From Ostreococcus lucimarinus (Eukaryota): a stretch of 64,000 nucleotides of DNA. How positions within the stretch are numbered: position 1 is the stretch's first letter; every line of letters begins with the position of its first letter. Positions 1-64,000 of this stretch are shown here, in pieces. The stretch lies in NCBI GenBank assembly GCA_000092065.1, contig CP000582.1. One strand, 5' to 3'. The position numbers and the translations under genes are program-made. The notes beneath the pieces are model-generated. The model was not told the origin of the DNA and searched no databases. It saw only the letters and a list, made by a program, of their open reading frames with translations.

Positions 1-1130
1 CAAATTTACATCTCTCCATGTGTGTCCCATCTTCTCTGCGGTTGTGCACGCATGTTGCCCTAGTAGTAGATTGTTCAATTTTCTAAAATGAACCAATGGT
101 GATGTCAATAAAGCGTGACTCATGAGGGCAGACTTGATCAGTGAAATCATACCAGATGCACCATCGAGGTGCCCTAAATTGGTATGTAAACTACCAAATC
201 CTATGTTTGAAGTGCGAGATGGGTCTTCAAAACAGAATATACGCTGGTATGCACCGATTTCTATTGCGTCGCCAAGTGGCTCACCTAGTCCAGATGCTTC
301 TACGAATGCAACGTCTGCTGGTAGTATGTTAGCATCAAGCAGTGCACGGTGCACTTTGTACTCAATTGCCGGTCCTCGAAGCGCTCTGAGCGAAGCGCCG
401 CCGCCTTTATGTATACACGAGGACCCCAGGAGCGTGACAAGCATAAATTTGCTACTGGTGGCTTTGTATGTACAGATCATGACTGCACCGACGCCTTCAC
501 CTCGCTCAAATCCGTCCGCTTGAGCATCAAATGTTTTGCATCGACCATCAGCTGGAAACATCTGACGTGCAATATGTAAATCTGATAATTGTCTGTGAAG
601 TATGATATTCGAACTCGCCGCTATGGAGGAGTTAGCATATTCAGGATCTGATGGCACATTCACTTTAGAAGAACTCGTAGCGAGATGAATACAAACTAAT
701 CCTGACGCAGACGCGCAGTCGATAGAGATAGATTCGCCTTGAAACCCAAATGTGTGACTTATTCGATTCGACGCAAAAGCATACGTCGATTCGGACATAC
801 CATGCGCAATATTTGATAGCTTATCGTGGGCAGAGCAGCCTGAATCTGTGAACATCACACGGAACGCTTCGTCCCTTGCCACAGAATCACTGTCATTCGT
901 ACATATACCTACGTATACTGATATTTTTTGCTCGTAAACGCGCGTACTCTTGTCTGAATATGGTACATCGGTAACTTCATGGCACGCTTTCAGCAACTCG
1001 CGCTGTTGCGGTTCAAGAAGTGATCGAACATCAGATCGGCCAATTCCAAAAAAGTTTGAGTCGAAAACGTCAAGCTGTCTTAGGAACGAGCCGTGCCTAC
1101 TATATTCGTGATAGACAAAATCCCGCTTTC
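1..1130 (-). other. Terminal KS (module 14) at the window edge; active-site-deficient, KS0-like
   Basis: The N-terminus IDRWDVERIFS...FDSNFFGIG and the NLGHLDGASGMISLIKSAL motif are normal. The active site reads GESISIDCASASGLV instead of DTACSSSL, with Ser at the Cys position. The HGTGT position reads VEASGLGEPLGDAIE, with the His lost. The C-terminus lies off the window. Confidence 0.6.
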
Positions 1131-28100: not shown

Positions 28101-31100
28101 GATGAATTGTCCCAGAATCGGATTCATTTATGACAATTGAGCCTTTTGCATTTAAGACCGCAGTCGCCGTTGTGATGTTCAACAATCCCGCTTTATTTGC
28201 AAAGTGTAACGAAATATCAGTACAGTTAATGCTCAAACTCAGCTGCAAGTTTCTGATAAATGAATAGTGCATGTGAGTGCTGAAAAGTGTCAGTTTTGTA
28301 TGACCTGTAGCGTGCATGTGCACTACAAAGGGTGAAGTATCGACAGGCATAATACATGGATAATCTAATCCTTTCCCGGGGACTTTTTGAGAATATTGTA
28401 GTCTAATATTCGAGATGTTCTTTCCTAGTGCAGTGGGAGGCCTTGTGAAAACATACTTTCTCAAGAGCGTAGTAGAACCAAATATTACATGCGGTGAAAA
28501 CGACAAAACTTCTGCATCAGGAATGCTATCTGAGTCTCTGTGAACCAGCAGTACACCATCCAGCGAAGCAACGACGTAGTGGAGAAGAAGTCGAAGGTAA
28601 AAGTTTGACGTCACTGCATACACGCGCAGGCGAGAGTGTCTGACTTCCGGAATTAGGTTGAATATGTATTCGCGGTACGTGGTCATATGTTGGTCAATAT
28701 CCAAGTATATGCATACATTGCTCGAAGTAACATATAAAGGTTGGGAAATATAGATCGTCTTCACATTTGTGTTCGTCTGTGCGCTTTCATTCCGTGATTT
28801 TTGGATTGATTGCGACAGTCTAGCTCGCATTAGCCGAGAAGTGTGGGAATGTTGGAGAGAAGTACCTCTTTCCATACGTATGCTGCTTTTTAGAATGAGG
28901 CTCTTCAACAGAGTTTTCCCACTATGTAACTGCTCTTCACACGAAGACCGGCAGGTATGTTCAAGACAGGCAATCAAATTGTCGACTGTGCCTCTGCAAA
29001 ATTTGCTTTCGTCATACATCAGGGTGCCGCTAATGTCGGCATGAGAATCTTGAAGTCCCAACCAGAGCGAAAAAACGGCTTGTTGAAAATGCTCTACTCT
29101 GGACTCCATACATTTTGATCGACGCAGATTGCTGACAAAGCTGAAGCATGTCTCAAACATAGGATTGTTAGCATGAAAGTCACATCCATGTCGAGTGCAA
29201 AGCAAATGGATGATATCGTTGATGGGGACTAGAGGGCATTCACGAGCAGCGTTTATCATGTGGTGCACATTCGCGACAATATGTGAGAAATTGATGTTCA
29301 TGTCGACCACACATCGGCCTGGTACAACGGCAGCGTAACACCCTATGGTTGATTGTTGTGAAAGTGAACTTGCGCATCGTAAATCGAATGAGTTTCCGAG
29401 AGTGATTCTTGCCAGACGTGATGCCTGAACCTGGCGTTCAGTTATGGTGGCGATCACAATTAGCCAGCAAGAAAGCAAAATGGTGCAAGTAGTAGTACCT
29501 AAGATTCTTGCGGTAGACTTCAATAAACGCGTTGCGCTTGCACTGAGTTTGAAAGGAACTCCAGCGCCTCGCAAGATGTCTGGTGAATTTAGGTCAGTCA
29601 TGAAATCATGTCGCAGCTTTGAGGCATTGAAACTACTTCGCTTATTTTCTGTGAGAACGTTCTCCCAGTGTATCAACGCTTTATTTCTCAGTTGTGCACG
29701 ACGATCTTTTTGGTCTATCAGGTGATGAAACCAGGAGGTGTACGAATCGAACGTCCCAGGTCGATCGCATGTAAGTGTGTTTGATCTACACGCATGGGCG
29801 ATGATAGCTAAAGAGAGCGCGTCACCAGCAATGTGGTGCAAAACTACCAGCAATTTTGACTCGCCCAGGCGATACAAACGAAGTGGTGCGTCGTTGAAAA
29901 TATCGAATGGATATGACTTCGCTTCAGCTATGACGATCTCTGAACGTCGGTGAACCGAACCACAATTCTTTCTATCACACCTTAAGATTGGTATGGAAGA
30001 AATTGTCTCTCCTGATTTTATGGATACACTATCATTGGGGGAAAAACGCATTCGTAGAATTGGATGGTTTAGTAACATACAGTTGAAGACCTCAATTATA
30101 TCCTTCTCCATAGAGATGTCCACGATCATTGACATATTGTAAGCACAACTTGACGGATAGAGCTTGAAGTGCAGTACAAATATTTTTTGTTCTTGGCTTG
30201 ATACCAGGACGCTGTCGTCTTTTACGTTTGCATGAGCTTCACTTTGGGAGACTGCAGTCGCGACCTGATTCATTTCGAGTCGTTTTATCAATTCCTCCAT
30301 TGATAAACTTTCAGTCAACAAGCTGGCTGGTATGCGACATCCGAGTTGCTGTTGAAGCCTAGCAAAAAATTCAGTTATCCCTAAGGAATCCATCCCACTC
30401 TCTATGAGAGTTTTGTCTTTCATAAATGAGTGGAAACTAACATCGCGGTAGCATGCGGAGACGATTTCGTACAACGATAGTTGGGCACCGTTGTGATTGA
30501 ACTCAGATGGCACATCCGGTTTCTTATGGTTTGTTTTTCTTTTGCGCAAGTGTGACCTTGATACTGACTGGTGCTCTAAATAGTGGAACTTGGAACTAGA
30601 TGAATTTCGCGCTACCAGCACATCCCAATGGCCGACTTCATTGCGATACCTCTCCATGTAGAAAAGTTCAATGTGTAGGGTAATGCATTTCATCTCACGT
30701 GAACGATGATGTATAAGTGTCTTTGAGTCTTCAAATAGCTTGCTCGGTAGAGCGAGGCCGGATTTTGACAATGTGCGCCCATACAAACTCTGTGATGAAG
30801 GACGGAAACACAATCGCCGTGCTGATTGAGATTGTCTTGTGAAATGTGATGCACATCGAGTCAAACGTGCTTCGAATGCGAGCTGTCCGCAGGCTTCTGC
30901 ACTGTTGAAAGTTCCATCGTGCGTACTTAGAGAGACAGTCCAGACATCTCGTGCGCATGTTTTCGTGCGATGAATACACTTTGTGATCAGGAAACGATCG
31001 TCATTGCCCAGCATATTAAGGGTCTGAAGATAACTCTCGATGTGTGCGCCAATTCCATGCATGTGAGCGTGGATGCACAAAATTATCTTGCAAGTCCCTT

Positions 31101-34100
31101 TCAAGTGTAGAAAATGGCCACGCATGTTTATCATCGGACTTCCACTGTCTTCAGCTTGATTAAATTCTAGTCTATGCCATAAAAATTCCATATCAGTGGT
31201 TCCCAAATGTTTACACCATTCATCTGAAGCAGCCACGATGTGTGCGTTTGTTCCAGAGTATCCAAACGAGCTTATCGATTTTAAGGCTGGGTTTAACGCG
31301 CATCGGCCTCGATTGAATCTCAATACATTCACATACTCCTTTACACTATCAAGAACAATTGGATTCATGTTGCGCAAAGACAATAGAAATCTACTTAAGC
31401 GCATATCATAAAGTGTCATCACTAACCCATGGATTCCTGAAGACGCTTCGCTGTGCCCATGTAGCGTCTTACTTGCCTGGAAGACGACGGGAGAGCGACC
31501 CACACAGTATACTCGTTGAATTGCAGCTATCTCGATGGGATCACCGAGCTGCGTACCTGTGCCATGTAACTCAGACTCATCTACGCCATTTCCTTCGACA
31601 TTAATGCCTGAGTGCGATGCACAGGATTGAATTAGCTCAAATTGAGCGTTGCCGTTCGGTGCCACCAAGGAACTAGTCCTTCCATCTTGGTTTATTTTGC
31701 TTGCTTTGAAGTATCCTACGTTTTCACTGATATCGTTCGATGCAGCGTGATCCACGCGACGTTTTGCAAGAAGCAGGCCTGCATAATTTTCGGCCCGACC
31801 ATATCCGTCGGCTTCGACGTCCATCGCTTTACATCTGCCATCTGATGATAGCATTCCTGCTGCATTGCAGACTATTGAAGTTCTTGGATCAAATATTAAG
31901 TTGACCCCGAAGGCCAGTTGTTCACAATCTCGATAATGATCATCACAAACACATGAAAAGTGCACTGCAACTAACGATGAAGAACACGCGGTATCAATAG
32001 ATATAGATTGTCCAGTAAAGTTGAAAGTGAAAGAAATCCTGCCGGCAGCAACGTTTGACACATTCGTTGCACTTTCATATCCGTTTGCAAGTGTAGACTT
32101 ATCACGCAAGATTCTTGCGTAGTCCGACGACGTGATGCCGACAAATACTGACTTTGCACATCCATTGACGCAATACTTTTTGTCGAGCAACGATGCGGCA
32201 GTGCCAAGCAGAACGCGCTGCTGTGGATCGCAGAGACGAGCTTCCATGCGTGACATATCAAAGGTATTGGCATCAAAATGATATACTTGAGCAATGAATC
32301 CACCAAAACTTGGTGGAAGTGCACCGTCTAGGGTATCAAATTTGAATAAATCTATGATCCAACGCTTCTCCAAACCTTGAATCGCATCAAACAACGGAAT
32401 CTTGTGAGTTACTGTCGACTGGCTGTGAAAAGTCTTAGCGTAGACTCGCACGTCAATACTATGACGTTTATGTTGGGTAGTCAAAGAGCAGGAAGACCTT
32501 TGTATGGAAATTTGATTTTGATGCGATTCGGACAACATACATTGGTTTTGTTGCGACAAAAAACGAATTAAAGATCGGAGTGTCGGATGCTCAAATGCTA
32601 CTAACTTTGGCACATCAATATGAAGCTTCGATGAAAGTGCATCAGCAAGTTCCAAAGCAAAAGTTGAGTCCACGCCGTTGGTCATGACGCTCTCATCCAA
32701 AGAAAATGGTCCATTTCTACATCCCCGTAAATCCGTTAGAACGCGCTGCACCACTGAAGCTACATGTGATTGTACGACATCCACGTGCATAGCTTCCAAA
32801 TAGTTGTCGTCACTCACAATCTGAGTTGATGGGTGTTTTACCCTATCAAGGAGATCGTCAAGTAGATCCCATTGCTGTAGGCTATGTTCTGTTTGGTTCA
32901 GCAGTACTCTAAATTGTGAGTCATATTTCTGCATGTCCAACTTGACTACCAAAACACCAGGAAGCGCACGAGTCAAATGACATTTTGATATTATACTGCA
33001 AAGCTTATTGGGGCAAATCGAGGTCAGGCCCAAGATGGATGAGTCCCATGTTGCATTTAACGCCATACCAACACTCGCAAATGGCCCCAAGCGGATTGAG
33101 ATAATTTCGCTTCCAAAAGAATGAAACCAAAGTGATAGCTCATCAATGTATGCATTTGACGCTGCATACGATGCCGCTCTCCCAAGACCGAAAACAGCGC
33201 TGATTGACGACAGAAATATGTCTATTTGTCGTGAGTGGGACGGAAAAAGCCAAGGCGTATTGTCTTTTTTAGCTTGTACTGAAGTTGCGACTTTTGGTAC
33301 GAAGACTGCCATCATCTGTGCAGGTGTCAGGTGTTTCACTGGAGTCATCTGAAAGACTCCTGCGGAATGTATAACTGACAGTTTTTTATTTTGATCCTTG
33401 CAGAACCGGGATTTAATGGCTGCTAACTCATCTAAATTGCACACACAAGCTCTCGATATTGTCAGATAGTCATCTTCCGTGGAAAATGTTGGATCCACGT
33501 GAAGCACGCGACTTCGCCCTGTGCGGCCAACAATACAAACATTACAATGCGAATGGCGTTTCAAATTATTTATTAAGTGAGCGGTTATGCCATGAGTTCC
33601 ACCATATGTTAAAACATTATGCGAGCAAGTCCATGCGAACTCACGCTGTCGTCCTTCGCGGAGGGTTGAACGTAAACTTACTTGCGCTAATCGCTGTGTG
33701 AAAATTTTACCAGCCTCAACTCTCATCTTGCACGAACTACAACTCAAAAACGTAAACTTTTCAAATACTGGTTTCGGAGCTAAAGCAACTTGCACATGTG
33801 GATACTCCAAATGCAATGCCTGAATTAAGCTCTCCATGGTCCCGAACGTGCAGGCGGCTTCACTTGCAGGACGTGGCTGCGTGGCCAGGTTGAAACAGGT
33901 TGATGAGCATGATCTTGAGACAATGCTTATCAACGGTAAAAACGTGAACATTGATGCGTAAATTGATGCAAATGTGTACGATGAGTCTTCTACTCTTTGA
34001 TAGGGCACTATGTCACACAAGTCCAGGTTAAAGGCACGCTTTCCAATTCGCGAAGCTTTGAAACTACCAAAATTAATACAATCTGTGCCGTCAATTCGTT

Positions 34101-37100
34101 GATGTTTTGCGGCTCCATAAACCCAATTGGCCACGTACTGATGCGTCGGTAATTTAGCACGTCTTCGTATTTGTGATGCACTTTCTTCACACTCTATCAA
34201 GTTATTGGAAGATTGAATTCGAGATTTAGTACGTGTAATTTTCCTATTTGAAACTGTACGATGCGCGCACGTGGTATTCAACAATCTTGAGAACTGAACC
34301 ATGGCGCAAGATATACGCAAAAAATGATGCATACACGACTTTAACAGTTGCTCTTTGACTCCTGTATCGCTAAAAAGTGTGTGTTCCATTGCACGACATG
34401 TAGAAATTGAATTCCGGAAGAACTGACATACGCTGAGGAAGCGCCGGTCGCGTACCTGTGGAGTAACGGTCACGCAGCCTTTACCAGTGTTAACACCATT
34501 CGACCCTACAACTTTAAACACAGAAGTTCTTTCGCAGAGATGTACGACCAAATTATCCTTTACTGCATTATGAGTTGTCAGCACTACTTGTGAAAGCATC
34601 GTCAATCGTTCGTTTGTTGTTATACCAACTACGGAATGTACAGCAAAAAGTAGATCTGACATTCGTGCGATATCATTATCCATATTATTTCTTTGCTTGA
34701 ATGTTAGCCATTGTGACGAATCTAGGTAATAGGCTTTACACTCCACTGTCATGTAATCGTGCAGTAAGTACTTTTCGTCGAGAAGTAGTGGGTTGCCGTC
34801 CATAGGGCGCTTATACAGAGCGCTGTAAACGGTCGCCGATAATATCGCGTGAGCGTTTGTACCTTGAAATGCAAACGAGCTCGTTCCCGTCTTCGCATTT
34901 GCTTTATGCACATGCTGGCACGAAGCAGAAGCAGATCGCGGCACAGCAACGTTTGGCTCTTGAGAGGGATTTATTGACATTGCGTGCCACGCATGTACGT
35001 TGAGTAAGCGCATGTGCATTATGCCAGTGTGTCTTTGCATTTCTACGGCACGTGATGCACTTATGAGCCCCGCCACACCGGCAGCACATTCAGCGTGCCC
35101 CATGTTCGTTTTGATTGCATGCAATCGTAAAGTTTCTGCCTGACCCAAAACAGACATCGCGCCTCCTACTTCTATGGGGTCACCAAGTGGCGTCCCAGTT
35201 CCATGCATTTCAAGGGCCCGCACTTCTAATGGCCGAGTCGAAGCGTTTGCCAGGGCTGATTTGATGACTCTGGTCTGCGATGGTCCATTTGGCGCCGTCA
35301 ACGAGCTCGTTCGACCGTCTTGATTTACTGCGGTCCCACACAGCCACACGCTCTCGCTATTGACATTCGCGGTTGGACTCAGTAATAATGTATCACAGCT
35401 TTCGGCTCGCACGTAACCATCCGCGGCCGCATCGAGCGTCTTGCAGCGGCCATCAGGCGCTAGCATACCAGCGCGTAGAAACATGGCCGTCGTAGTCTCG
35501 GTGAGGATGAGGTTCACGCCACCCGTTACAGTTGAGTCGCACTCACTCTGAAATACAGATGCCACACCGAGATGGACTGCCACAAGGGACGAGGAGCAGG
35601 CAGTGTCGATACTCATCGCCGGTCCTGTGAGATCGAATGTGAAGCATATCCGTCCAGAAGCGACACTGGAAACGCTCGAAGCGGGCACATCTCTGAAATT
35701 GAGTGGGAATATTAGTCGAAGTGCCCCGTACTCATCGGCACTGACACCAATGAAACAGCCTGTTTGACCATCGATTACACCTTGGTCGTCGTAGATGCAG
35801 CCGAAAGTGCACTTGAGTAACGTCCGTTGTCTTGGATCCATTTGCGCAGTTGTGCGTTCATTGAGGTCGAAAATGTGTGCGTCAAAATTGTTTACATTAT
35901 TCATATGAAATGCAAATGGTGGGTTGCCTGATTCAAAGAAAGAATCGAACCGGCTGTCGACGAGCGTCACTTCGTCGTCGTAGGTTGCAGTAGACATATT
36001 GCCGTAGAAAGACGCAAGTGTGATACTTCTATTGCCCAGATTCTCCGCAGAACTGCCTTCCAATACCCGCAAGCTTTGTCGTGATTGAATTGATGATGAA
36101 CTTGAACTTTGTAAACGGTCTGCAAGATGACGAGCTAGTGATTTTACCGTCGGGTAATCAAAACCGAGTGTATGTGGCAGATTGAGAGACGTCTCTACAG
36201 CCAAGCTCATCGCTAACTGCGACATACCGATAGAATCCAGACCTAACGATGTAAGTGGTGTATTTATTGACTTCTCATCTTGATTGATTCCAGTAATAGA
36301 AGACAAATTTCTGAAAATGAGTCCCTCTAGAGATATAAGATCATCGTGAGTTTCATCTTCGGCCCCAGCTTTGGTGGAATAAATGGTAGCGTCATCTTTC
36401 GATGATAATTCGTGTGAATTAAACCCTGAACCCAGATGCGCTTGATTATGTAGTTTTTGCCCTATCACAGAATAACATGGAGCAGAGAAAATATCGCTCG
36501 AAAGTACGTACAGATTTTTCAAGATATCCAAAGCAAGGTGTGGATTTATTGAGGGCATAAAAGCAGTGTTTGCGGAAATTCTACGCGTATCAATAGCCAT
36601 TCCAACTGCACTCCACGCTCCCCATCGAGTACTCACAATGTTCATGCCTGAAGCCTTCTTATGTGCCGACATCATATCAAGTGTTGCATTCGCAGAGGAA
36701 TAGTTGGCTTGTCCTATAGAACCGAAGACGGCGAGGGAAGAAAATACTATTGAAACAAGCATTGCATGGTGTAAGTGCGTTTTAGAACAAGAGAAAGATC
36801 CCGTCTTTGGAGCAAATGTAGACCTAATGGAATGAGGATTTTGTGAAGCATGCAAAGCGTCTTTCGTTACGCCACTCATGTGGACAATTCCAAAGGTGTT
36901 TGTGTCTCCTTCGTATGGTAATACGGTGGTAGAGGCGCACGAGTCATCTTGCCTAAGTTTTAAACTGATTCGCCAATGGTTAAAGAGTTTTGGTTTTGCG
37001 GACTTTCCACTTCTACATGATACACAAATGCCTAGTACATTGTGGTTGTGTGCTAACCAACCAACGTTCATCACCCCAATGCCACCTGTGCCACCTGTAA

Positions 37101-40100
37101 TTCCCCAATACTCGCACCTGTTCGAAATGAAGTGTTCCGATGGTAAGTTGTATCGTAGATGTTTCAGGAACGCAATAATGTTTTGGTTTAGTTCTTCATC
37201 AGATACTGAACACTGAGTGTGGTGATTTGACATTGTGCGAAAGCGTTCGCGTTCAATTCTTTCTTCTGTCTGTGTTCGTACTAGCGAAAGAAGGCAAGAG
37301 TAATGCACGAAGTGCATTTGTGACATCTCTATCCAAATATACTGCGACGAGTTTTGTAGCTGCTCATAGGATGCTGTGCAGAGAATCACATCACCAGCAT
37401 TCAGGCTTGACTTGGACAATTTTGTAGCGACTACCCCTATGAAGGGTATATGTGCAACTTTCGCATTCATTAACATACTTTTGACGCTCGATCCCGATGC
37501 GAATGAACGCTTTATTTCAACGAGAATAGACTGGTTAGAATCGGTTGCCACTTGCATCTTGGGGTACAAGAACTGTTGTTGCACTGATATGCGAAGTTGA
37601 CACGGCATTTTGACCTTCCGAAATGTTGAGTTTGTCACGCGTTTTTGCTTTCCTTCCTCATACATAATGCATCGTAAGACAGCCTCCAAGTGTGAATGTC
37701 CGACACTACTTAGCGCCGGTGATTGAACTTTTACATATTTTGACTGCATGAAGCACATCATGCTGGCAGTCTCCACGCCGAAGAGTGCAGGCCTCGATGG
37801 CCACTCAGGTGCATGGATAGATCTTGAATTTTCGGTTTCGTAGTACACACTGTGAACGAAATCTAGCGCACCGCAAGATTTTCTTTCAGTCGTCATCAAA
37901 CTAGATAAGTGACGCATTCTGATGATTGAAGCAGTGCAACCATGCATGGTCATCATGGCAGAAGTTTTGTTCCCCGCGCTATATAAAATGAACGAAGCAT
38001 GTACTTCTCCTGCAGATGCGGTTTGCATCATGCACTTGGAGTCCATCACATCCATACTATGCGATGCCATGCAGTTTTGTCTTATTGACTCAACAGCTTT
38101 TGGTAGGTATCCTGCAGTTATTGAATAAGTCTGACAGATTTGTAGACATGCATCACAAGTTGCCGACATCGTGAAAGGTGATGGCCGGTGTTGTGAATCA
38201 ACTCTACCTAGTATTTTGCTTTGTTTTTCGCAATGTTTTTTTGTGTATGTATGAACGCGTTGTTGAGTGTGAGTCAGAGACGTCAACGCAAATGAAAATG
38301 TGCAATTAATGGCACTTCCTGCATTCGAAAGTATTCCCGTCCGTTGCCAAATTTTAATTTGTACATTTCCAAAATGTGCTGGTTTTATGAAAACCACATC
38401 TCGAAGCAAGAGTAATGTTTGGTTTTTCGTAATGTTTTTCATACTCTCTCGCAAAATCTGCGCGAGCAAAGTCCCTGGTAGGCATGTTCTGTTCAAAACT
38501 TGATGGTCAGTGAGGAATTGGTTTTCAACATGGTTGAGCAAAAAAACAGTCTCAAGAACTCTATTGGTTACGTGCGCTCTGAATGGTGCCATGATTTGAA
38601 GACCCCAGCAATCAATTGGAGTGTACATGATGGATTTGCACGCAAGTTGTCGTCTGATTTGAAACTCATCATGTGCTACTGATACAATTGCGTGAGCATT
38701 TGTTCCCTGGAAAGCGAACGAGCTTATCGCCTGTGTCCGTGAAAGAGACTGCATGTTTTCCCTCGTAAATAATGCTAATTGAATTTTCGAGTTCAATGAT
38801 AACACGTCACTCACATGTGCATTTAAATGGCGCAAATGAACGATTGCGATAGCGGCTGATTCTGATAAAGAGTGGACGAGATGGGCAAATGAAGCACAGC
38901 CAGATGCCGGCTCAGCATGACCAGACCTTGATTTAACGGCCTGAGCCATCAATGGAGCATGGCTAACCTTCATCGGCGGTCTGAGGGCCTTGAACGTTGA
39001 TGAGACTTCAATCGGATCGCCAAGGATAGTTCCTGTACCGTGCAATTGTATGGCACCTATGTGATCAACTTCGACAGTTGCGGCGTGTGCAGTCGTTGAA
39101 ATCAATATCACTTGAGCGATTCCATTGGGTGCTGTGAGTGAACTCGTTCGTCCGTCTTGAGCGACAGTGCAAGCCATGAGTACACAGCGCTGTGTATGGG
39201 ATTTACAACGACTGAGTATCTGTAATTCGCAACACTCACCTCTGACATACCCATCTGCATGCATATCTAACACTTTACAACGACCTTCTGCAGATAACAT
39301 ACCCGCCAAGTAGCAAAGATACGAATTCCTGGGACTTATGATATGAACGCCTCCACAAAGCATATCATGCACGGCGTCGAATGTGTTCCGACATCCCAAG
39401 GTTTCCCGGCGAGCGATATACATCGCCACTAGCGCTGAAGAACATGCTGTATCCACGCTGACGGCTGGGCCTTGCATATCAAATATATATGCAAGACGAC
39501 CGGATGCTACGCTGATATGTTGACCGGATGCACTATATGCACAGGAATGCTCGCGTGCGCCTAAGGACACTTCGGGATAAGATGAAATACCAAGCGAGAT
39601 ACCGGTGTAAATGCTGAATAGATGGCTATGGAATAGACGTTGAGAATGTTCCAACAGCAGACGCTGCTGTGGGTCCATGCTGATCGCCTCTGCTTTTCCA
39701 ATTCGGAAACCTTGCCAGTCGAACATCACGATGCTTTCAACGAAGCAGCCCACTTTTAAACGTGGGTCGCTTTCTCCAAGTTCATCCGACAAAATGCGCC
39801 GTGCTGTTGGCATGAGGGCAATACTGTCGCAGTTTGCGACGCCCGCTGCCCCATGTGAAGTTCCAGATGACACAGCAAGCACACACTGAAGGTTGGGTTG
39901 CACAAATGGTGCGTTTTGTGGTGAACGACACAGTGCTTCTATCCCGTGCGCTTCGTCACAGCTGTGTTCAACATTTTGCATTAAATATGTGCACAATTTT
40001 GAAATGGTGGGGAAGTCAAATACCAAAGATGGTGCTACTTGCCTGTCGAAGTGTGTCGATATTTTACTGGCTAACTCAATCGCAGATAAAGAATCCAAGC

Positions 40101-43100
40101 CGGCGTCGTGGAGGGGGATATCAGGGTCAACATCGAAACCAATCAATGTGCAAACCATCTTATGAAGTAAACTCAGACAGTCCTGGGTGGTGTGACACCG
40201 CACGCCTGACGTAGTAAACTTTTTCTGACGCTCTAGCGTTGTTTGTTTATCAGCAATTTTCCGAGTGTGCACACTTTGCAAGCCGGTCGTATGTTTCTCA
40301 AGTAGCCAATCAGCCTTCGTCGAGTCACTGGTGAATGCGTTCTGGCATACGACGAGCACTGCGCCACATGATAGAGGTGCATTTTCTATTCTGCGCATGG
40401 TACTTTTCAGCGCAGCGAGGGCAGTCTTTGGGTCCATGAAGCCAACTCCTAGACGCGACATATTTCGTTCTATGTACTTATTACGGATCGCCATTCCGAC
40501 CTTCCCCCAGGCGCCCCATTGAACGCTGCACACAGGGCGACCAGCTGTGTGCTCAAATTGAGCGAGAGTATCCAAGGCAGAATTTGCGCATGAATAATTT
40601 GCCTGTCCTGGTGAACCTATTCGTGCCGTTATGGAAGAAAAGAAAATGGCGCTTAAAAGCGGTTTGCTTGAGTATAGATCAGCGTCAATGGTGAGAACTT
40701 TAGGAGCAAAGACTTCACGAATGCGTGCTGGCGTTTGTCGCAGAAGCAAGGCATCCGATGTACAACCTGCCGCATGCACGAGTCGAATTGAAGAGCACTT
40801 ATCAGTGAGCATGCAGTTATGGTTATGTGTTCGCCAGACATACATGAAACACTCAATGTAAAACGTCCGCTCATGCACGTAAATCTGAGATTTGCCTGAA
40901 CGATTCGGTAACTTGATGCATTGCATCTTCGTACGGATCAGCCTTCCAATGCCCCCGGACCCTCCTATTATCGTAAGTTGCTCTGTTTTTTTACCTTTCT
41001 CGTCACTTAAGCGCAGATATAAGGCTGAAGGTACGGTTTTATCGAAAAATTTGTGTTGATCTACGTATGAGTTTGACGGAACTATATTCTCTTGCACCGC
41101 TACCTTGCAAATTTGATGCAGCTGTTTGGTAGCGTTTGTACAATGAATGAGCTCGATGTGTCGACGCATTAGGCTTGTAAGTAAGGCGATATCGGCTGCA
41201 ACCTGCATCACTGAACATGCTTGTATTTTCCTTGGAACGGGTTCAAAGTCTGCATCTTGACATTCATAGAAAATTGTGATATTCTGGATTTTGCAGGGCG
41301 CTTTGCACGTTAAGCTACTAGCTTTGAACTGGGAATCGAAACCTAAAAGTTTGTCTAAACTCATACTGCAACCTGAGATTGTGTAACTTCCGACTGTTTT
41401 CACCTTGGAAACAGACTCAAAGATGGAGACACCACAACTAGCAAACCAACGCAATCCCTTGATCGCAATCTTCTGTGATACTGCGTCACCGATTACAGCA
41501 TTGACTGCTATTATGAAGGCTGCGGATGTGTTCGAAAGACTAGCTGCATTGTGATGAAGATCATAGGAACTGATAGAATGCGTGACGACATGCACATTTG
41601 AGCGGAGAAGAGGCGCGATTGTGGGCGAATCGAACTGCTTCATACTTGTATCGCACTTCTTGGATGCATGCTTTATCCTTGCACGACAATGCTCACCTTG
41701 TGAAGTTTCCACTTTGATCGCACCGGTTATGGCGCGGACAGAAACTTCTATACGTTGGTGGTACTGCAAAAGTAATGGCCTCACAATCGCAAGATCTTGA
41801 ACCATTGCAGTGTGTAAATCAAATGTACCGCACGCTTGAGCCATGTAATCTATGTACCCAGCCGCTGGAAATAACGGTTTTCCATGGATGCAATGGTCCG
41901 ACAGCGCTGGTGTCGGCTGATGGAGGCGCGAAACAATCGAATTGTGGCACACTTTTATCGACGCACCCGAGCTGTGCACTGGAGATGCAAACCAGCACTG
42001 ATTGCAGGAGAATAGCTTGGATGCGACACTATTGCAAGAACAGCCAGAATTTCGTGCTGTCGCCGATAATATCGCGTGAGCGTTTGTACCTTGAAATGCA
42101 AACGAGCTCGTTCCCGTCTTCGCATTTGCTTTATGCACATGCTGGCACGAAGCAGAAGCAGATCGCGGCACAGCAACGTTTGGCTCTTGAGAGGGATTTA
42201 TTGACATTGCGTGCCACGCATGTACGTTGAGTAAGCGCATGTGCATTATGCCAGTGTGTCTTTGCATTTCTACGGCACGTGATGCACTTATGAGCCCCGC
42301 CATACCGGCAGCACATTCAGCGTGCCCCATGTTCGTTTTGATTGCATGCAATCGTAAAGTTTCTGCCTGACCCAAAACAGACATCGCGCCTCCTACTTCT
42401 ATGGGGTCACCAAGTGGCGTCCCAGTTCCATGCATTTCAAGGGCCCGCACTTCTAATGGCCGAGTCGAAGCGTTTGCCAGGGCTGATTTGATGACTCTGG
42501 TCTGCGATGGTCCATTTGGCGCCGTCAACGAGCTCGTTCGACCGTCTTGATTTACTGCGGTCCCACACAGCCACACGCTCTCGCTATTGACATTCGCGGT
42601 TGGACTCAGTAATAATGTATCACAGCTTTCGGCTCGCACGTAACCATCCGCGGCCGCATCGAGCGTCTTGCAGCGGCCATCAGGCGCTAGCATACCAGCG
42701 CGTAGAAACATGGCCGTCGTAGTCTCGGTGAGGATGAGGTTCACGCCACCCGTTACAGTTGAGTCGCACTCACTCTGAAATACAGATGCCACACCGAGAT
42801 GGACTGCCACAAGGGACGAGGAGCAGGCAGTGTCGATACTCATCGCCGATCCTGTGAGATCGAATGTGAAGCATATCCGTCCAGAAGCGACACTCAACGC
42901 TTGTGATGTAGCATCTAGTGCACTTGCGGGGACACTTGTGGTTGTGCGCATGACCTCACCATACTCCATCCAAGCGATTCCAATAAACACAGAAGTGTGA
43001 GATATTGTGTATTTCGGTAGACATAGCGAGCTCACGCAGTGTAGTAGCAGACGCTGCTGTGGGTCCATGCTGATCGCCTCTGCTTTTCCAATTCGGAAAC

Positions 43101-46100
43101 CTTGCCAGTCGAACATCACGATGCTTTCAACGAAGCAGCCCACTTTTAAACGTGGGTCGCTTTCTCCAAGTTCATCCGACAAAATGCGCCGTGCTGTTGG
43201 CATGAGGGCAATACTGTCGCAGTTTGCGACGCCCGCTGCCCCATGTGAAGTTCCAGATGACACAGCAAGCACACACTGAAGGTTGGGTTGCACAAATGGT
43301 GCGTTTTGTGGTGAACGACACAGTGCTTCTATCCCGTGCGCTTCGTCACAGCTGTGTTCAACATTTTGCATTAAATATGTGCACAATTTTGAAATGGTGG
43401 GGAAGTCAAATACCAAAGATGGTGCTACTTGCCTGTCGAAGTGTGTCGATATTTTACTGGCTAACTCAATCGCAGATAAAGAATCCAAGCCGGCGTCGTG
43501 GAGGGGGATATCAGGGTCAACATCGAAACCAATCAATGTGCAAACCATCTTATGAAGTAAACTCAGACAGTCCTGGGTGGTGTGACACCGCACGCCTGAC
43601 GTAGTAAACTTTTTCTGACGCTCTAGCGTTGTTTGTTTATCAGCAATTTTCCGAGTGTGCACACTTTGCAAGCCGGTCGTATGTTTCTCAAGTAGCCAAT
43701 CAGCCTTCGTCGAGTCACTGGTGAATGCGTTCTGGCATACGACGAGCACTGCGCCACATGATAGAGGTGCATTTTCTATTCTGCGCATGGTACTTTTCAG
43801 CGCAGCGAGGGCAGTCTTTGGGTCCATGAAGCCAACTCCTAGACGCGACATATTTCGTTCTATGTACTTATTACGGATCGCCATTCCGACCTTCCCCCAG
43901 GCGCCCCATTGAACGCTGCACACAGGGCGACCAGCTGTGTGCTCAAATTGAGCGAGAGTATCCAAGGCAGAATTTGCGCATGAATAATTTGCCTGTCCTG
44001 GTGAACCTATTCGTGCCGTTATGGAAGAAAAGAAAATGGCGCTTAAAAGCGGTTTGCTTGAGTATAGATCAGCGTCAATGGTGAGAACTTTAGGAGCAAA
44101 GACTTCACGAATGCGTGCTGGCGTTTGTCGCAGAAGCAAGGCATCCGATGTACAACCTGCCGCATGAATAAAGCATAATGAATCCACAGCGTATCGATTT
44201 ATCTGTATATTAGTGTGTACGTAGGATTGTACAAACGACACAACGCTGTCACTGTACTGATGCTGTCTTAGCATACAGTTTGTTCGTCCAAAGCGACTCA
44301 TTAGTGTATGTGGTGAGCTGTACCTCATTAGGAAAGTACTAGTGAGTTGCCCTGTAGCTCCTGTTCCTCCCATGATGAAGTAAGACCGATTAAGATCGCA
44401 GGAGGCTATGAATTCACTTTTGTTACGATCGAGCTTGATCTTATGTATTTTGCGATTAGAGCACGCCAACTGTTGAGCAAGAGATTCTTTTAGGCACCGG
44501 TGCAATACATGAAATTTTCTCAGACTTTTGTATTGCGTAAAAGCCTGTAGTAGGATGCTAGAGTGTTGAAACGGCGCATCTTCACCCCGTACAACTAGGG
44601 AAACATTTTCTTTGATGCATTCAGTCTCAGCGCATCGGAACAGTGATGCAAGATACTTGATGGAATTCGTCTCACATAGCTCAACTCGACCTTCCATTTG
44701 CAGCACATAGGCGTGCAATACCATCACCGCATGAGCGACTATTTTTTCACGCATCAGTGATATAAATCGCGCGTGTGCTTGAGTGGTACAAGGTCTTAAG
44801 CTTGTGCTTGGTGAAAATCTTGACACGTACTTGACAATATTGATTCCATTGCTCAAATTATTTTTATGTGGATACCCATTTGCCTTTGTGCGTAGCATTT
44901 TGCATTTCACTTTGAATAACACCACGCAGCCAACCAGATGATTGCCAAGACTCTCACCATGGCTGTCCAATTCAATGTTACAGCGCGTACTTATGCGCCG
45001 CACTGACGTGATCTCAGGAGGAGATGTGCTACAAAACTTTATTATGGTCGGCAGCATCGTCACACACTTTGATACTTTCTGTCCATCTATGACTCCCACA
45101 CTGATCTGCAGAGTCGCGTCAATAATTGAGGGCACATGGCCTGATGTGAAGTTTGTTGATGCAGTCTCAACATGAGCGAGTGCAATGTTCAACCGACGCC
45201 CACTGTCGAAGATCGGGCTCAATGTCTGCGAAGAGAAAACATAAAGTGTGTTGTGTCTATCGCACTTCTTGGATGCATGCTTTATCCTTGCACGACAATG
45301 CTCACCTTGTGAAGTTTCCACTTTGATCGCACCGGTTATGGCGCGGACAGAAACTTCTATACGTTGGTGGTACTGCAAAAGTAATGGCCTCACAATCGCA
45401 AGATCTTGAACCATTGCAGTGTGTAAATCAAATGTACCGCACGCTTGAGCCATGTAATCTATGTACCCAGCCGCTGGAAATAACGGTTTTCCATGGATGC
45501 AATGGTCCGACAGCGCTGGTGTCGGCTGATGGAGGCGCGAAACAATCGAATTGTGGCACACTTTTATCGACGCACCCGAGCTGTGCACTGGAGATGCAAA
45601 CCAGCACTGATTGCAGGAGAATAGCTTGGATGCGACACTATTGCAAGAACAGCCAGAATTTCGTGCTGTCGCCGATAATATCGCGTGAGCGTTTGTACCT
45701 TGAAATGCAAACGAGCTCGTTCCCGTCTTCGCATTTGCTTTATGCACATGCTGGCACGAAGCAGAAGCAGATCGCGGCACAGCAACGTTTGGCTCTTGAG
45801 AGGGATTTATTGACATTGCGTGCCACGCATGTACGTTGAGTAAGCGCATGTGCATTATGCCAGTGTGTCTTTGCATTTCTACGGCACGTGATGCACTTAT
45901 GAGCCCCGCCATACCGGCAGCACATTCAGCGTGCCCCATGTTCGTTTTGATTGCATGCAATCGTAAAGTTTCTGCCTGACCCAAAACAGACATCGCGCCT
46001 CCTACTTCTATGGGGTCACCAAGTGGCGTCCCAGTTCCATGCATTTCAAGGGCCCGCACTTCTAATGGCCGAGTCGAAGCGTTTGCCAGGGCTGATTTGA

Positions 46101-49100
46101 TGACTCTGGTCTGCGATGGTCCATTTGGCGCCGTCAACGAGCTCGTTCGACCGTCTTGATTTACTGCGGTCCCACACAGCCACACGCTCTCGCTATTGAC
46201 ATTCGCGGTTGGACTCAGTAATAATGTATCACAGCTTTCGGCTCGCACGTAACCATCCGCGGCCGCATCGAGCGTCTTGCAGCGGCCATCAGGCGCTAGC
46301 ATACCAGCGCGTAGAAACATGGCCGTCGTAGTCTCGGTGAGGATGAGGTTCACGCCACCCGTTACAGTTGAGTCGCACTCACTCTGAAATACAGATGCCA
46401 CACCGAGATGGACTGCCACAAGGGACGAGGAGCAGGCAGTGTCGATACTCATCGCCGATCCTGTGAGATCGAATGTGAAGCATATCCGTCCAGAAGCGAC
46501 ACTCAACGCTTGTGATGTAGCATCTAGTGCACTTGCGGGGACACTTGTGGTTGTGCGCATGACCTCACCATACTCCATCCAAGCGATTCCAATAAACACA
46601 GAAGTGTGAGATATTGTGTATTTCGGTAGACATAGCGAGCTCACGCAGTGTAGTAGCAGACGCTGCTGTGGGTCCATGCTGATCGCCTCTGCTTTTCCAA
46701 TTCGGAAACCTTGCCAGTCGAACATCACGATGCTTTCAACGAAGCAGCCCACTTTTAAACGTGGGTCGCTTTCTCCAAGTTCATCCGACAAAATGCGCCG
46801 TGCTGTTGGCATGAGGGCAATACTGTCGCAGTTTGCGACGCCCGCTGCCCCATGTGAAGTTCCAGATGACACAGCAAGCACACACTGAAGGTTGGGTTGC
46901 ACAAATGGTGCGTTTTGTGGTGAACGACACAGTGCTTCTATCCCGTGCGCTTCGTCACAGCTGTGTTCAACATTTTGCATTAAATATGTGCACAATTTTG
47001 AAATGGTGGGGAAGTCAAATACCAAAGATGGTGCTACTTGCCTGTCGAAGTGTGTCGATATTTTACTGGCTAACTCAATCGCAGATAAAGAATCCAAGCC
47101 GGCGTCGTGGAGGGGGATATCAGGGTCAACATCGAAACCAATCAATGTGCAAACCATCTTATGAAGTAAACTCAGACAGTCCTGGGTGGTGTGACACCGC
47201 ACGCCTGACGTAGTAAACTTTTTCTGACGCTCTAGCGTTGTTTGTTTATCAGCAATTTTCCGAGTGTGCACACTTTGCAAGCCGGTCGTATGTTTCTCAA
47301 GTAGCCAATCAGCCTTCGTCGAGTCACTGGTGAATGCGTTCTGGCATACGACGAGCACTGCGCCACATGATAGAGGTGCATTTTCTATTCTGCGCATGGT
47401 ACTTTTCAGCGCAGCGAGGGCAGTCTTTGGGTCCATGAAGCCAACTCCTAGACGCGACATATTTCGTTCTATGTACTTATTACGGATCGCCATTCCGACC
47501 TTCCCCCAGGCGCCCCATTGAACGCTGCACACAGGGCGACCAGCTGTGTGCTCAAATTGAGCGAGAGTATCCAAGGCAGAATTTGCGCATGAATAATTTG
47601 CCTGTCCTGGTGAACCTATTCGTGCCGTTATGGAAGAAAAGAAAATGGCGCTTAAAAGCGGTTTGCTTGAGTATAGATCAGCGTCAATGGTGAGAACTTT
47701 AGGAGCAAAGACTTCACGAATGCGTGCTGGCGTTTGTCGCAGAAGCAAGGCATCCGATGTACAACCTGCCGCATGAATAAAGCATAATGAATCCACAGCG
47801 TATCGATTTATCTGTATATTAGTGTGTACGTAGGATTGTACAAACGACACAACGCTGTCACTGTACTGATGCTGTCTTAGCATACAGTTTGTTCGTCCAA
47901 AGCGACTCATTAGTGTATGTGGTGAGCTGTACCTCATTAGGAAAGTACTAGTGAGTTGCCCTGTAGCTCCTGTTCCTCCCATGATGAAGTAAGACCGATT
48001 AAGATCGCAGGAGGCTATGAATTCACTTTTGTTACGATCGAGCTTGATCTTATGTATTTTGCGATTAGAGCACGCCAACTGTTGAGCAAGAGATTCTTTC
48101 AGGCACCGGTGCAATACATGAAATTTTCTCAGACTTTTGTATTGCGTAAAAGCCTGTAGTAGGATGCTAGAGTGTTGAAACGGCGCATCTTCACCCCGTA
48201 CAACTAGGGAAACATTTTCTTTGATGCATTCAGTCTCAGCGCATCGGAACAGTGATGCAAGATACTTGATGGAATTCGTCTCACATAGCTCAACTCGACC
48301 TTCCATTTGCAGCACATAGGCGTGCAATACCATCACCGCATGAGCGACTATTTTTTCACGCATCAGTGATATAAATCGCGCGTGTGCTTGAGTGGTACAA
48401 GGTCTTAAGCTTGTGCTTGGTGAAAATCTTGACACGTACTTGACAATATTGATTCCATTGCTCAAATTATTTTTATGTGGATACCCATTTGCCTTTGTGC
48501 GTAGCATTTTGCATTTCACTTTGAATAACACCACGCAGCCAACCAGATGATTGCCAAGACTCTCACCATGGCTGTCCAATTCAATGTTACAGCGCGTACT
48601 TATGCGCCGCACTGACGTGATCTCAGGAGGAGATGTGCTACAAAACTTTATTATGGTCGGCAGCATCGTCACACACTTTGATACTTTCTGTCCATCTATG
48701 ACTCCCACACTGATCTGCAGAGTCGCGTCAATAATTGAGGGCACATGGCCTGATGTGAAGTTTGTTGATGCAGTCTCAACATGAGCGAGTGCAATGTTCA
48801 ACCGACGCCCACTGTCGAAGATCGGGCTCAATGTCTGCGAAGAGAAAACATAAAGTGTGTTGTGTCTATCGCACTTCTTGGATGCATGCTTTATCCTTGC
48901 ACGACAATGCTCACCTTGTGAAGTTTCCACTTTGATCGCACCGGTTATGGCGCGGACAGAAACTTCTATACGTTGGTGGTACTGCAAAAGTAATGGCCTC
49001 ACAATCGCAAGATCTTGAACCATTGCAGTGTGTAAATCAAATGTACCGCACGCTTGAGCCATGTAATCTATGTACCCAGCCGCTGGAAATAACGGTTTTC

Positions 49101-52100
49101 CATGGATGCAATGGTCCGACAGCACTGGTGTCGGCTGATGGAGGCGCGAAACAATCGAATTGTGGCACACTTTTATCGACGCACCCGAGCTGTGCACTGG
49201 AGATGCAAACCAGCACTGATTGCAGGAGAATAGCTTGGATGCGACACTATTGCAAGAACAGCCAGAATTTCGTGCTGTCGCCGATAATATCGCGTGAGCG
49301 TTTGTACCTTGAAATGCAAACGAGCTCGTTCCCGTCTTCGCATTTGCTTTATGCACATGCTGGCACGAAGCAGAAGCAGATCGCGGCACAGCAACGTTTG
49401 GCTCTTGAGAGGGATTTATTGACATTGCGTGCCACGCATGTACGTTGAGTAAGCGCATGTGCATTATGCCAGTGTGTCTTTGCATTTCTACGGCACGTGA
49501 TGCACTTATGAGCCCCGCCATACCGGCAGCACATTCAGCGTGCCCCATGTTCGTTTTGATTGCATGCAATCGTAAAGTTTCTGCCTGACCCAAAACAGAC
49601 ATCGCGCCTCCTACTTCTATGGGGTCACCAAGTGGCGTCCCAGTTCCATGCATTTCAAGGGCCCGCACTTCTAATGGCCGAGTCGAAGCGTTTGCCAGGG
49701 CTGATTTGATGACTCTGGTCTGCGATGGTCCATTTGGCGCCGTCAACGAGCTCGTTCGACCGTCTTGATTTACTGCGGTCCCACACAGCCACACGCTCTC
49801 GCTATTGACATTCGCGGTTGGACTCAGTAATAATGTATCACAGCTTTCGGCTCGCACGTAACCATCCGCGGCCGCATCGAGCGTCTTGCAGCGGCCATCA
49901 GGCGCTAGCATACCAGCGCGTAGAAACATGGCCGTCGTAGTCTCGGTGAGGATGAGGTTCACGCCACCCGTTACAGTTGAGTCGCACTCACTCTGAAATA
50001 CAGATGCCACACCGAGATGGACTGCCACAAGGGACGAGGAGCAGGCAGTGTCGATACTCATCGCCGGTCCTGTGAGATCGAATGTGAAGCATATCCGTCC
50101 AGAAGCGACACTCAACGCTTGTGATGTAGCATCTAGTGCACTTGCGGGGACACTTGTGGTTGTGCGCATGACCTCACCATACTCCATCCAAGCGATTCCA
50201 ATAAACACAGAAGTGTGAGATATTGTGTATTTCGGTAGACATAGCGAGCTCACGCAGTGTAGTAGCAGACGCTGCTGTGGGTCCATGCTGATCGCTTCTG
50301 CTTTTCCAATTCGGAAACCTTGCCAATCAAAGTTCGACACGTTTCTCAGTTTCCACATCGCGCACGACAAGTTTTCATCAAAGTGATAATAATGATCTGT
50401 TTCGAGAAGCTGTGTCAATTGAGTAGAAACCAGCACGTGTGTTCGCGTAGCTAACAAAAATAGATGATTCTCAGAGTGTTGACGCAATTCGTGTTCAACT
50501 GTCGCGTTCTGTGTCGTCTCCGTAGACTGTCTATATGTTGACTGATCCGTGTTCGTAATAAACGCTGTGATGTCATTGACCGTAGGATAGTCATACAGAA
50601 ATGTTGTCGGTAAGTCAATCTGGAAATACTCACTCATTTCAGCGATTATCACTACTGTCTGTGCTGAAGAAAGTCCCAGTGAATGTATAATCGGCTCATA
50701 CACACATTCAAGTGGAGAAAGTGAATGTGCGCAGCTTTGCAAAGCCTGTAGAACAAGCCATTTATCGTGCTTCTCAACACACTTTTTGGGATGTTTGCCG
50801 GAGAAAGCGCATGTCTGGTTATTTTGATTCGAAGACAGTCGATGTGACGATGGCATTCCAAACAGAAGCACGTCACAAAGAGACGTGACCTGCTCTTTTG
50901 CAATATTGTTATCTTCAACAGTTGGTGCGAGGTCTATATCGCTTCGATATCTTTGTTCGGCAAGCCGAGCACACGGGTACAGTATCGTACCATCGAAAGT
51001 ATCATGCATGTTAGTAACATCTCGTGAATCACTTTTTACGAGTTGGTATGGAGTTCCCGAACAGTTGAAAAAATCCGTCCTCTGTTGAAAGTCTCGCATT
51101 AATGCAAACTTGGAAGCGACTAGCATTTTACCATAATGAAATGGGAGGGTAACAAGTATTGGGCACAGTTTATTGATTTTGGTTTTCGTATCAATCAAGT
51201 CAGTTTGTCTCTCTGCTTCAGCCTCGGCGACGAGAAAAAATATCGAAATACCAGTTGTTGACCCTCCCAGTATGAAACTATCATTATCATTCTCGAGAAG
51301 GAGTCTTATGCGCTCAGCTGGATAAAGCTGTGTATTCAGTCGTTCCACGAATTCAGCCACTTTTGCACGAGTCCATCCACGAAACGCGAACATGTGCACG
51401 CGATTGCAAAGTGACTGATTTCTCAAATCGTTGTCACAAAATACAGTCATATGCCTGACCGTGGACTTTGCCCGAATGGATAACCATAGAAGAAACTTTG
51501 CAATTAATATAGGATACGCCCAGTGCATCCAAGAGTAAGTGAACTTTGCACCAGTCGAAAAAATATTTGAAGAAACTTCCTGTGAGATCCAGCCTTGCGA
51601 GTGCCCGATACTATGGTAGAAAGGTTGAATCTTTCGAAAGAGCAACTTGGAGCTTTTGAGAAACGTACTGAAGTGTACTATGTAGGTCAGTGAAGATGAT
51701 ATCGACGACTCCGCAAATTTATCAATCAATCTTACTTTCATCGGAATTGATTTTGAATAGCATTGTATTCGAATGTGATAGGCATCTGAATTATCGATCG
51801 AGGTTTCATCCAACGCACTGAGACCTTGGCCAGCAAAATTGAATGCATATTCCGTTGACCGTGGCGCAATCTTCGAAACATTATACGAAAAATGCGGTCT
51901 GCGAAGAAGCAGAGATCCATGTCGATAAACTGTTGGATCAAACCGTCTTCTACTCCGCGCCTGTTGAAATAGTTTTGCAGTATGCAAGGTTTCCTCAGGG
52001 CACTTTCCATAACTTTGCATTGAAGCAAAGTAATAGAAGGAGCTCAAATCAACGTCATGATCGAATGCGTCAGTCTGAACACTAAAAAGCTCATCGAAAA

Positions 52101-63150: not shown

Positions 63151-64000
63151 TCGTACAGCTTAGATAACACCGTGCGTCTAAGGCTACACGTTCGAAGAAT
63201 CAGCCACACACAATTCTAAACTTCGTTTTAATCTCGACTTGGTCCTGCTTCGCACACCCTGTACTCCTCCACGAGATTCTCAACGGCTTCCTGACTATCA
63301 GCAAATTCTCCCAAGTCCTGATACCATTGTAACTCTCATCAACTAATCGAGGAAACGCGACTCACCGAAAATAAATCAAACTGTTCATACTGATCGAGGA
63401 ATGCCCGACGCCTTATTAGCTTATCGTACTGCTCCAAACTTCGTGAGAACCAGTGACGTATGCTGGTGTGAAAGGTGTCAGCAGGACGACGCAAAGAGCT
63501 GCATTATAGCTCACCTTGTGTGATTTGCGAGCATGAGTCCGTTCAGACTTGCCGTTTTCGCGATATACGGAGAACTCCTCGCTAAAGCAACTTGATAGTT
63601 GACAGGTGCCCAAGTGATAAAATTTGCCAGTTTCCGTTCTCGTATACGCTGTAAGCTTTTGTGTATCTGTTTTGATGTGAGTGTACAAGTGCGGAACACC
63701 TTGGAATATGAATACCTGCATGGGTTCAATATTTCCTTGAACGATGTTCAAAATGGATATGAATTTGCCCTAAAGTTGGCTTTAAGCAAAAGAAAGGCGG
63801 GAAGCACGGAAAGGGATGGACCTCTTTGACACCTGTGCCCGCATACGAGGAACACATCACATTTTTGCTTTGTAGGAGTCTTCGCATGACATCAAGGGTA
63901 GAAGTTTTGCGTGTACTGTACAATAAATACATGAGAACATATGAATATTGAAGTTGTGCCGCATGGACCTGCTTTCCGTTGCGGAAACACCAGCGAGAGG

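Follow-up and report, generated by a model that had tools for sequence, protein, structure and literature searches.

Near-identical and mosaic modules point to inter-module recombination in the giant trans-AT polyketide synthase gene OluPKS3 of Ostreococcus lucimarinus

How does one reading frame come to hold several catalytic modules that are almost exact copies of each other, and are such copies the relic of a single event or have they gone on exchanging sequence? The question is raised by a 64,000-nucleotide stretch of contig CP000582.1 of the green alga Ostreococcus lucimarinus (hereafter the window, to which all coordinates refer), whose minus strand is stop-free from 52287 to 1. This frame comprises at least 17,429 codons, because it leaves the window at position 1, has its first ATG at 52257, and belongs to OluPKS3, a giant polyketide synthase (PKS) gene. 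Near its 5′ end, modules 1–3 form a head-to-tail array, array B; modules 11–13 form a second, array A. Our reading, to which we assign a probability of roughly 0.8, is that array B is the triplicated first extension module of OluPKS3, comprising ketosynthase (KS), dehydratase (DH), ketoreductase (KR) and acyl carrier protein (ACP) domains, and that it arose through unequal homologous recombination together with gene conversion or segment replacement.

Anatomy of the module array

Self-comparison of the window with megablast aligned 41649–46716 with 45258–50325 at 99.92% identity over 5068 bp, with 4 mismatches and 0 gaps. Array B accordingly has a period of 3609 bp and spans 41649–50325 (8677 bp, 2.40 units), and a separate repeat search returned the same 3609-bp spacing. 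The initial annotation, made from the letters alone, had placed the array at 41650–50330 with a partial copy at 48868–50330 and a period of 3609, values that proved right to within 1–5 bp. Pfam bears out its description of a KS-DH-KR-ACP array that follows a loading ACP at the N terminus of a giant PKS: each unit encodes a KS, the N-terminal part of a DH, a KR and an ACP. Units 1 and 2 differ at unit offsets 30, 259, 1202 and 2226; two of these differences are synonymous, one exchanges P and S, and one V and A. Chance cannot account for such likeness, because the unique KS domains of OluPKS3 share only 21–36% protein identity with one another, against 100% between KS2 and KS3 and 96–100% among KS11–KS13. 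The second array, in which the same kind of repetition had been suspected, was found as well (Table 1), and identity comparison placed the KS copies in the two tight groups that had been foreseen, KS11, KS12 and KS13 in one, and KS1, KS2 and KS3 in the other, the latter joined by KS5.

The borders of the repeat do not follow the borders of domains. What was duplicated extends from roughly residue 70 of a KS to the equivalent position in the following KS and is not a canonical KS-to-ACP module. The array does lie downstream of the loading ACP, as had been claimed, but it does not begin right after it at a domain border: its start lies about 70 residues into KS1, 77 residues past the end of the loading-ACP Pfam match. 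The upstream end falls at the KS motif FDWQGFRI and the downstream end, in KS4, just past MDPQQRLLL, and both ends lie within a 62-bp stretch common to KS1–KS4 that encodes the conserved KS motif FDxxF...MDPQQRLLL. Besides the copy in KS1 (Table 1), this segment recurs in KS2 (46655–46716), KS3 (43046–43107) and KS4 (39656–39717). Since both array ends fall inside it, the segment is the likely crossover site. The array B junctions carry no transposon, and the repeat boundaries stay within conserved KS sequence.

Table 1. Positions of the array units, mosaic segments and related features of OluPKS3
Feature	Position	Strand	Remark
Unit 1 (3609 bp): KS1 from FDWQGFRI on, DH, KR, ACP, first ~70 residues of KS2	46717..50325	−	
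Unit 2 (3609 bp)	43108..46716	−	4 differences from unit 1
Unit 3, first part (1459 bp, identical to unit 2): KS3, N-terminal half of DH3 including HCIHGKPLFP	41649..43107	−	
Module-3 patch (872 bp in place of 1091 bp): C-terminal DH half, linker, KR start	40777..41648	−	
Unit 3, second part (1121 bp): KR C-terminal part, ACP3, first ~91 residues of KS4	39656..40776	−	
62-bp junction segment encoding (F)DWQGFRIGKAEAISMDPQQRLLL	50264..50325	−	
KS5 core tract, 836 bp, 99.8–99.9% identical to KS1–3	34832..35667	−	
Array A, modules 11–13: period 3702 bp, ~2.34 units, 99.9% identical	3584..12263	−	
Loading ACP (PP-binding, residues 535–577 of frame, just upstream of KS1)	50557..50685	−	Pfam E = 7.8e-7
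OluPKS3 (XP_001416378.1), giant trans-AT type I PKS gene	1..52257	−	Cut by window edge at position 1

Module 3 has a mosaic structure. The claim that modules 1–3 are about 99.9% identical holds throughout modules 1 and 2, but module 3, compared with unit 2 in 150-bp bins, passes from 100% to about 33% and back to 100% identity. Between its two conserved parts lies an 872-bp patch that matches the corresponding 1091 bp of units 1 and 2 only at the level of alignment noise (27–43%). The second conserved part is 100% identical to 43046–44166 and to 46655–47775. Read in the orientation of the gene, units 1 and 2 are complete and only unit 3 is interrupted, so that the copy first described as partial owes that label to the strand on which the array is read; the repetition also reaches further than first described, taking in the 1121-bp identical part of unit 3 and a fourth partial copy in KS5. 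The patch carries its own KR motif, GGSGGIG, where modules 1 and 2 have GGTGATG, and in a weak alignment the DH aspartate of modules 1 and 2 (IIDATLQ) falls opposite a non-acidic residue of module 3. DH3 may therefore be inactive and module 3 may differ in function from modules 1 and 2, even though its KS, its ACP and the C-terminal part of its KR are identical to theirs. No donor of the patch was found within the window, the closest relative in the gene being a 28% protein match over the KR start, and a metagenome scan with the patch protein gave zero matches.

A second discontinuity lies further downstream. Across module 5, 150-bp bins run from about 40% to 100% and down to about 37% identity, so that the KS5 core tract stands inside an otherwise unalignable module. 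Module 4, which separates it from the array, shows background identity throughout except in its first 62 bp. Identical tracts with abrupt borders inside diverged paralogues, the pattern expected of gene conversion, are thus present in both KS5 and module 3, and the 836-bp KS5 stretch is, judged by its sequence, a gene-conversion tract.

Proposed recombination and conversion between modules

These features can be joined in a two-step account. Neighbouring KS domains would first recombine unequally, by homology within the conserved motif near their N termini, and so duplicate the 3609-bp unit head to tail; an event of this kind should leave copies at a fixed spacing, joined in sequence that the partners have in common, and array B shows both (3609 bp with 0 gaps, and the 62-bp motif). 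Short-tract gene conversion or segment replacement between modules would then create and maintain the patchwork, in which modules 1 and 2 are alike, module 3 is alike save for a foreign patch covering the C-terminal part of DH and the N-terminal part of KR, and the core of KS5 is converted. Conversion or segment replacement is needed because duplication followed by point mutation cannot yield either the module-3 mosaic or an isolated tract in KS5. The proposal that ongoing unequal crossing-over shapes the gene is in this respect upheld as to recombination between modules but too narrow, as crossing-over alone fails to explain the module-3 pattern and the KS5 tract.

Further information comes from a comparison of the window with six metagenome or genome contigs that carry the neighbouring gene. 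One of them, L001, a 360-kb contig assembled de novo (JGI, 3300047157, Ga0494219_00130), matches the window collinearly over 63135–42514, showing 6 mismatches and 0 gaps, and covers two full array B units and 594 bp of the third. Because L001 keeps the unit-1-specific base at offset 30, and with it the difference between units 1 and 2, its two units are distinct loci. All 3 of its in-array differences from the window sit on the remaining unit-variable sites (259, 1202 and 2226). At offset 259, KS1 of the window carries C and its KS2 and KS3 carry T; in L001 all three carry T, and in another contig, L003, the collapsed array copy carries C. The KS5 base at this offset is C in the window, in L002 and in L003. 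Such a pattern requires that one variant or more passed from copy to copy after the tract had formed. Units differ from each other by 0.08%, no more than alleles do in the PKS (0–0.1%), which places the last homogenization about as recently as the common ancestry of the population.

The best surviving alternative, which we nonetheless consider improbable, is that a single recent tandem amplification took place with nothing since, the likeness of the units reflecting youth and neither continuing conversion nor unequal crossing-over. The small number of differences between units, at 4 sites only, is what such an event would leave, and the structure of array B is alike in CCE9901, the strain of the window, and L001 as far as it is visible. 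O. tauri accords with it, as it also does with our main reading: going by the published domain strings (PMC4661987), OtaPKS4 seems to have one module before the DTACSSA-type KS where O. lucimarinus has three, which fits a lineage-specific gain in O. lucimarinus and hence a lineage-specific amplification. A single amplification, however, cannot make an unalignable 872-bp patch between flanks that are 100% identical, nor a tract in a KS two modules away. It also leaves aside the state at offset 259, which KS5 shares with only part of the array copies and which varies between haplotypes, and array A, which probably stands one unit apart between two haplotypes that are 99.97% identical.

Independent assemblies, unit number and base composition

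Could the array instead be an artefact, one module having been expanded or wrongly joined in the reference assembly, so that the real gene has fewer units? Several contigs appear at first sight to say so. In L002 and L003, modules 1–3 are collapsed to one, leaving a single unit between the N-terminal flank and module 4; in L005, KS1 jumps straight to the module-3 patch; L004/L008 and L007 end about 150 bp into array B; and a metagenome scan with a 30-mer across the array boundary found two contigs only, each ending at the repeat. Assembly from short reads is, however, expected to yield such walks by collapsing 3.6-kb repeats of 99.9% identity, and the path shared by L002 and L003 is inconsistent with that of L005, so these contigs represent short-read collapse and are uninformative on copy number. 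L001, by contrast, contains two complete units and the next KS with the unit-1-specific base at offset 30 retained. The length of its PKS points the same way, since what it lacks relative to the reference corresponds to a unit of array A and not to a missing unit of array B. Mis-assembly, which had been named as the finding that would overturn the array, is on this evidence very improbable.

The same length comparison bears on unit number. The PKS called on the L001 contig has 16,671 amino acids (aa) and starts at the ATG equivalent to window position 51393; counted from the same ATG, the reference has 17,905 aa, if its 18,193-aa protein starts at 52257. The difference, 1234 aa, is exactly one 3702-bp unit of array A, whereas a unit of array B would be 1203 aa. 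Going by lengths only, this suggests that the L001 haplotype has array B unchanged and array A either one unit shorter or collapsed in assembly, that is, either a wild haplotype with 13 instead of 14 KS domains or a collapsed assembly. In array B the structure is the same in CCE9901 and in L001 as far as it can be read, with no change in copy number seen. An ongoing change of unit number in this array, as the initial annotation had envisaged, thus finds no support in L001, the sole independent assembly that resolves the repeat.

Several points weigh against the recombination and conversion reading. Evidence of transfer between copies comes from a single site, offset 259, which is slender support, and the loss of the DH3 aspartate depends on a weak alignment. 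Divergence of the patch is too great to separate an old duplicate that escaped conversion from a later replacement by a donor sequence. The short-read contigs L002, L003, L005, L004/L008 and L007 collapse or break at the array, and the support for the number of units in CCE9901 consists of the deposited assembly, the single independent contig L001 and the length calculation. Finally, a homologue search with the whole unit returned no Ostreococcus orthologue among its proteins, all of which were about 2100 aa or shorter.

The best match to the whole unit among those returned proteins was a Bathycoccus fragment with 51% identity. Records of Bathycoccus prasinos (P0027, P0038 and P0047) include multi-domain KS/KR/ACP ‘unnamed protein products’ of 850–2000 aa, and no type I PKS was listed for this species by Shelest et al. 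2015 (PMC4661987). Either newer assemblies have revealed a PKS in B. prasinos, or the gene is fragmented in annotation.

Base composition differs along the gene. The repeated KS domains (KS1–3, KS5 and KS11–13) have a GC content of 0.51–0.53 and a GC content at third codon positions (GC3) of 0.485–0.494, the seven unique KS domains have 0.44–0.49 and 0.40–0.44, respectively, and the two-copy middle of the array B unit has background GC, about 0.44. Either GC-biased conversion or a recent import from DNA richer in GC could lie behind the higher GC of the repeated tracts. A GRINS-type element, in which intense nucleotide skew recodes PKS regions and promotes conversion as in bacterial assembly-line PKSs, can be set aside as extremely improbable: the gene does contain duplicated regions longer than 500 bp and more than 80% identical within one PKS, and the repeated tracts do differ in composition through their higher GC, but against the published skew threshold of 0.15 (PMC8256042), with skews taken here in 150-nt windows, array B has a mean |GC skew| of 0.076 and a mean |TA skew| of 0.093, no higher than in unique modules.

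A broader reading, which we put forward only tentatively, is that module number and conversion tracts of OluPKS3 are polymorphic in wild O. lucimarinus, with a natural ‘accelerated evolution’ of chain length still in progress in a eukaryote and GC3 as the footprint of inter-module conversion. Such a footprint would point to GC-biased conversion within a low-GC outlier region where recombination is thought to be suppressed. If unit number does differ between wild haplotypes, Ostreococcus populations would carry polyketides of differing chain length.

Gene context, predicted chemistry and known systems

The identity of the gene rests on its domains and its neighbours. In 15 consecutive pieces covering all 17,429 residues, Pfam recognized 14 KS domains together with KR, ACP and DH-N domains and one condensation (C) domain, and gave zero matches to Acyl_transf_1, the integrated acyltransferase (AT); nor was a free-standing AT gene found within the 64-kb window. 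With multiple KS domains and no integrated AT, the gene has the make-up of a modular trans-AT type I PKS. The active-site motif DTACSS is present in 13 of the 14 KS domains and HGTGT in 12. The last KS in the window, KS14 (1–1413), is a non-elongating KS0 with DCASASG and SGLGE, and module 7 (around residue 7484) has a C domain with an intact HHIAGD and without an adenylation domain, features that were both also remarked by Shelest et al. 2015. The domain order, ACP-(KS-DH-KR-ACP)x3-KS-KR-ACP-KS-KR-ACP-KS-ACP-C-...-KS, agrees with that published for OluPKS3 (Table S2 of PMC4661987), as do the central C domain with its HHxxxD motif and, in Table S3 of the same paper, DTACSSA in KS4 and DCASASG/SGLGE in KS14. 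Both neighbouring proteins are exact matches to XP_001416379.1 and XP_001416137.1 of O. lucimarinus CCE9901. Because neighbours, domain order and the KS4, KS14 and C-domain motifs all match, the gene is OluPKS3 of this strain, for which the reference protein has 18,193 aa (PMC6681478). It sits on the low-GC outlier part of chromosome 2.

The loading ACP has the attachment motif LGLSS and not GxDS. Ahead of it, 50690–52257 on the minus strand (residues 11 to ~530) encodes about 520 stop-free residues, and this N-terminal region gave no Pfam match, no PDB match and no homologue in a search of 5.8 billion proteins. An AT-like loader had been suspected in the N-terminal 544 aa from an acyltransferase/hydrolase-like GQG...GHSQG, and was dropped on these zero matches and zero homologues. 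To judge from the searches, this appears to be an orphan N-terminal region.

Adjoining the start of the PKS, 52514–55258 on the minus strand encodes a carotenoid-cleavage oxygenase (RPE65) fused to a C-terminal GST-N/glutaredoxin-like domain. This protein is identical in contigs from about 150 marine metagenome sample blocks, indicating that the species is abundant. The further surroundings are eukaryotic in character: a transposase of Tc5/pogo type and a HAD hydrolase lie in the window, and split fragments of tubulin and glucokinase occur on related contigs. A bacterial trans-AT PKS, which the gene at first resembled, is ruled out by this transposase, the tubulin fragments and the exact protein matches to O. 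lucimarinus, and an assignment to Bathycoccus, suggested by GC content, fails on the same matches. The transposase (HTH_Tnp_Tc5 plus DDE_1; open reading frame 60108–62741 on the plus strand, within 59900–63140), for which a look-up returned no record, lies at a distance of 5 kb from the start of the PKS; L001, L002, L004 and L005 contain it, L003 and L006 lack it, and in L003 the 631 bp adjoining its site are inverted. From this distribution it looks like a polymorphic transposon insertion beside the PKS. Beyond it, 244 bp of the window (63136–63379) are missing from L001, an indel polymorphism.

The catalytic motifs encoded by the unit allow its chemistry to be predicted. They comprise DTACSS and HGTGT in KS, HCIHGKPLFP (HxxxGxxxxP) in DH, GGTGATG (GGxGxxG) and YSCAN (YxxxN) in KR, and GLDS in ACP. 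Each unit would add one malonyl-derived two-carbon (C2) unit and leave a trans double bond, so that the three modules following the loading ACP would build a short polyene with conjugated trans double bonds at the start of the chain; if DH3 is inactive, module 3 would leave a hydroxyl instead. Gain or loss of a unit would shift chain length by C2. Both this array chemistry and the state of DH3 are predicted from motifs.

A giant modular PKS with repeated modules is known from Mycobacterium ulcerans, whose mycolactone PKS has whole modules and domains that match almost exactly in nucleotide sequence, a likeness taken to reflect very recent duplication and recombination. That system differs from OluPKS3 in being bacterial, plasmid-borne and cis-AT, and in having identity across many more modules.

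For OluPKS3 itself, Shelest, Heimerl, Fichtner and Sasso 2015 (BMC Genomics 16:1015, PMC4661987) described an ‘apparent module duplication’ of modules 1–3, with 89–98% overall similarity and 98–100% in KS and ACP, reported that modules 11–13 are duplicated, and found that KS1–3 and KS5 cluster together. The core finding, duplication of modules 1–3, is therefore already published. Their analysis was made at the protein level, and the DNA period and identity, the module-3 mosaic, the KS5 tract, the breakpoints, the GC excess and the haplotype comparison are absent from it; the new elements here are the mosaic at DNA level, the breakpoints, the comparison of haplotypes and the hint of a copy-number difference in array A. 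Giant PKS genes on the outlier chromosomes of Mamiellales have also been described as varying in module repetition (2026 preprint; bioRxiv 10.1101/2025.04.21.649811). These belong to the same gene class and the same compartment, the low-GC region of the big outlier chromosome, but the variation reported there is among O. tauri strains and between species and is tied to Mutator-like elements, whereas array B has its boundaries in KS sequence and no transposon at its junctions.

Bacterial assembly-line PKSs likewise contain long near-identical tracts shared between modules, which have been attributed to gene conversion (Nivina et al. 2021, PMC8256042, on GRINS; Medema et al. 2014, PMC4256081, on the concerted evolution of PKS domains). 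GRINS copies are 75–95% identical (PMC8256042), whereas the copies described here are 99.9–100% identical, lie in a eukaryotic trans-AT PKS and lack the defining skew. In bacterial trans-AT PKSs, recombination sites lie downstream of (‘behind’) KS domains (Helfrich et al. 2021, PMC7930024); the exchange of module-sized blocks is alike in OluPKS3, but its boundaries fall instead about 70–91 residues inside the KS N terminus. OluPKS3 thereby offers a eukaryotic trans-AT example of putative crossover and conversion endpoints, inside the conserved KS N-terminal motif and in mid-DH, that would be useful in choosing splice points for PKS engineering.

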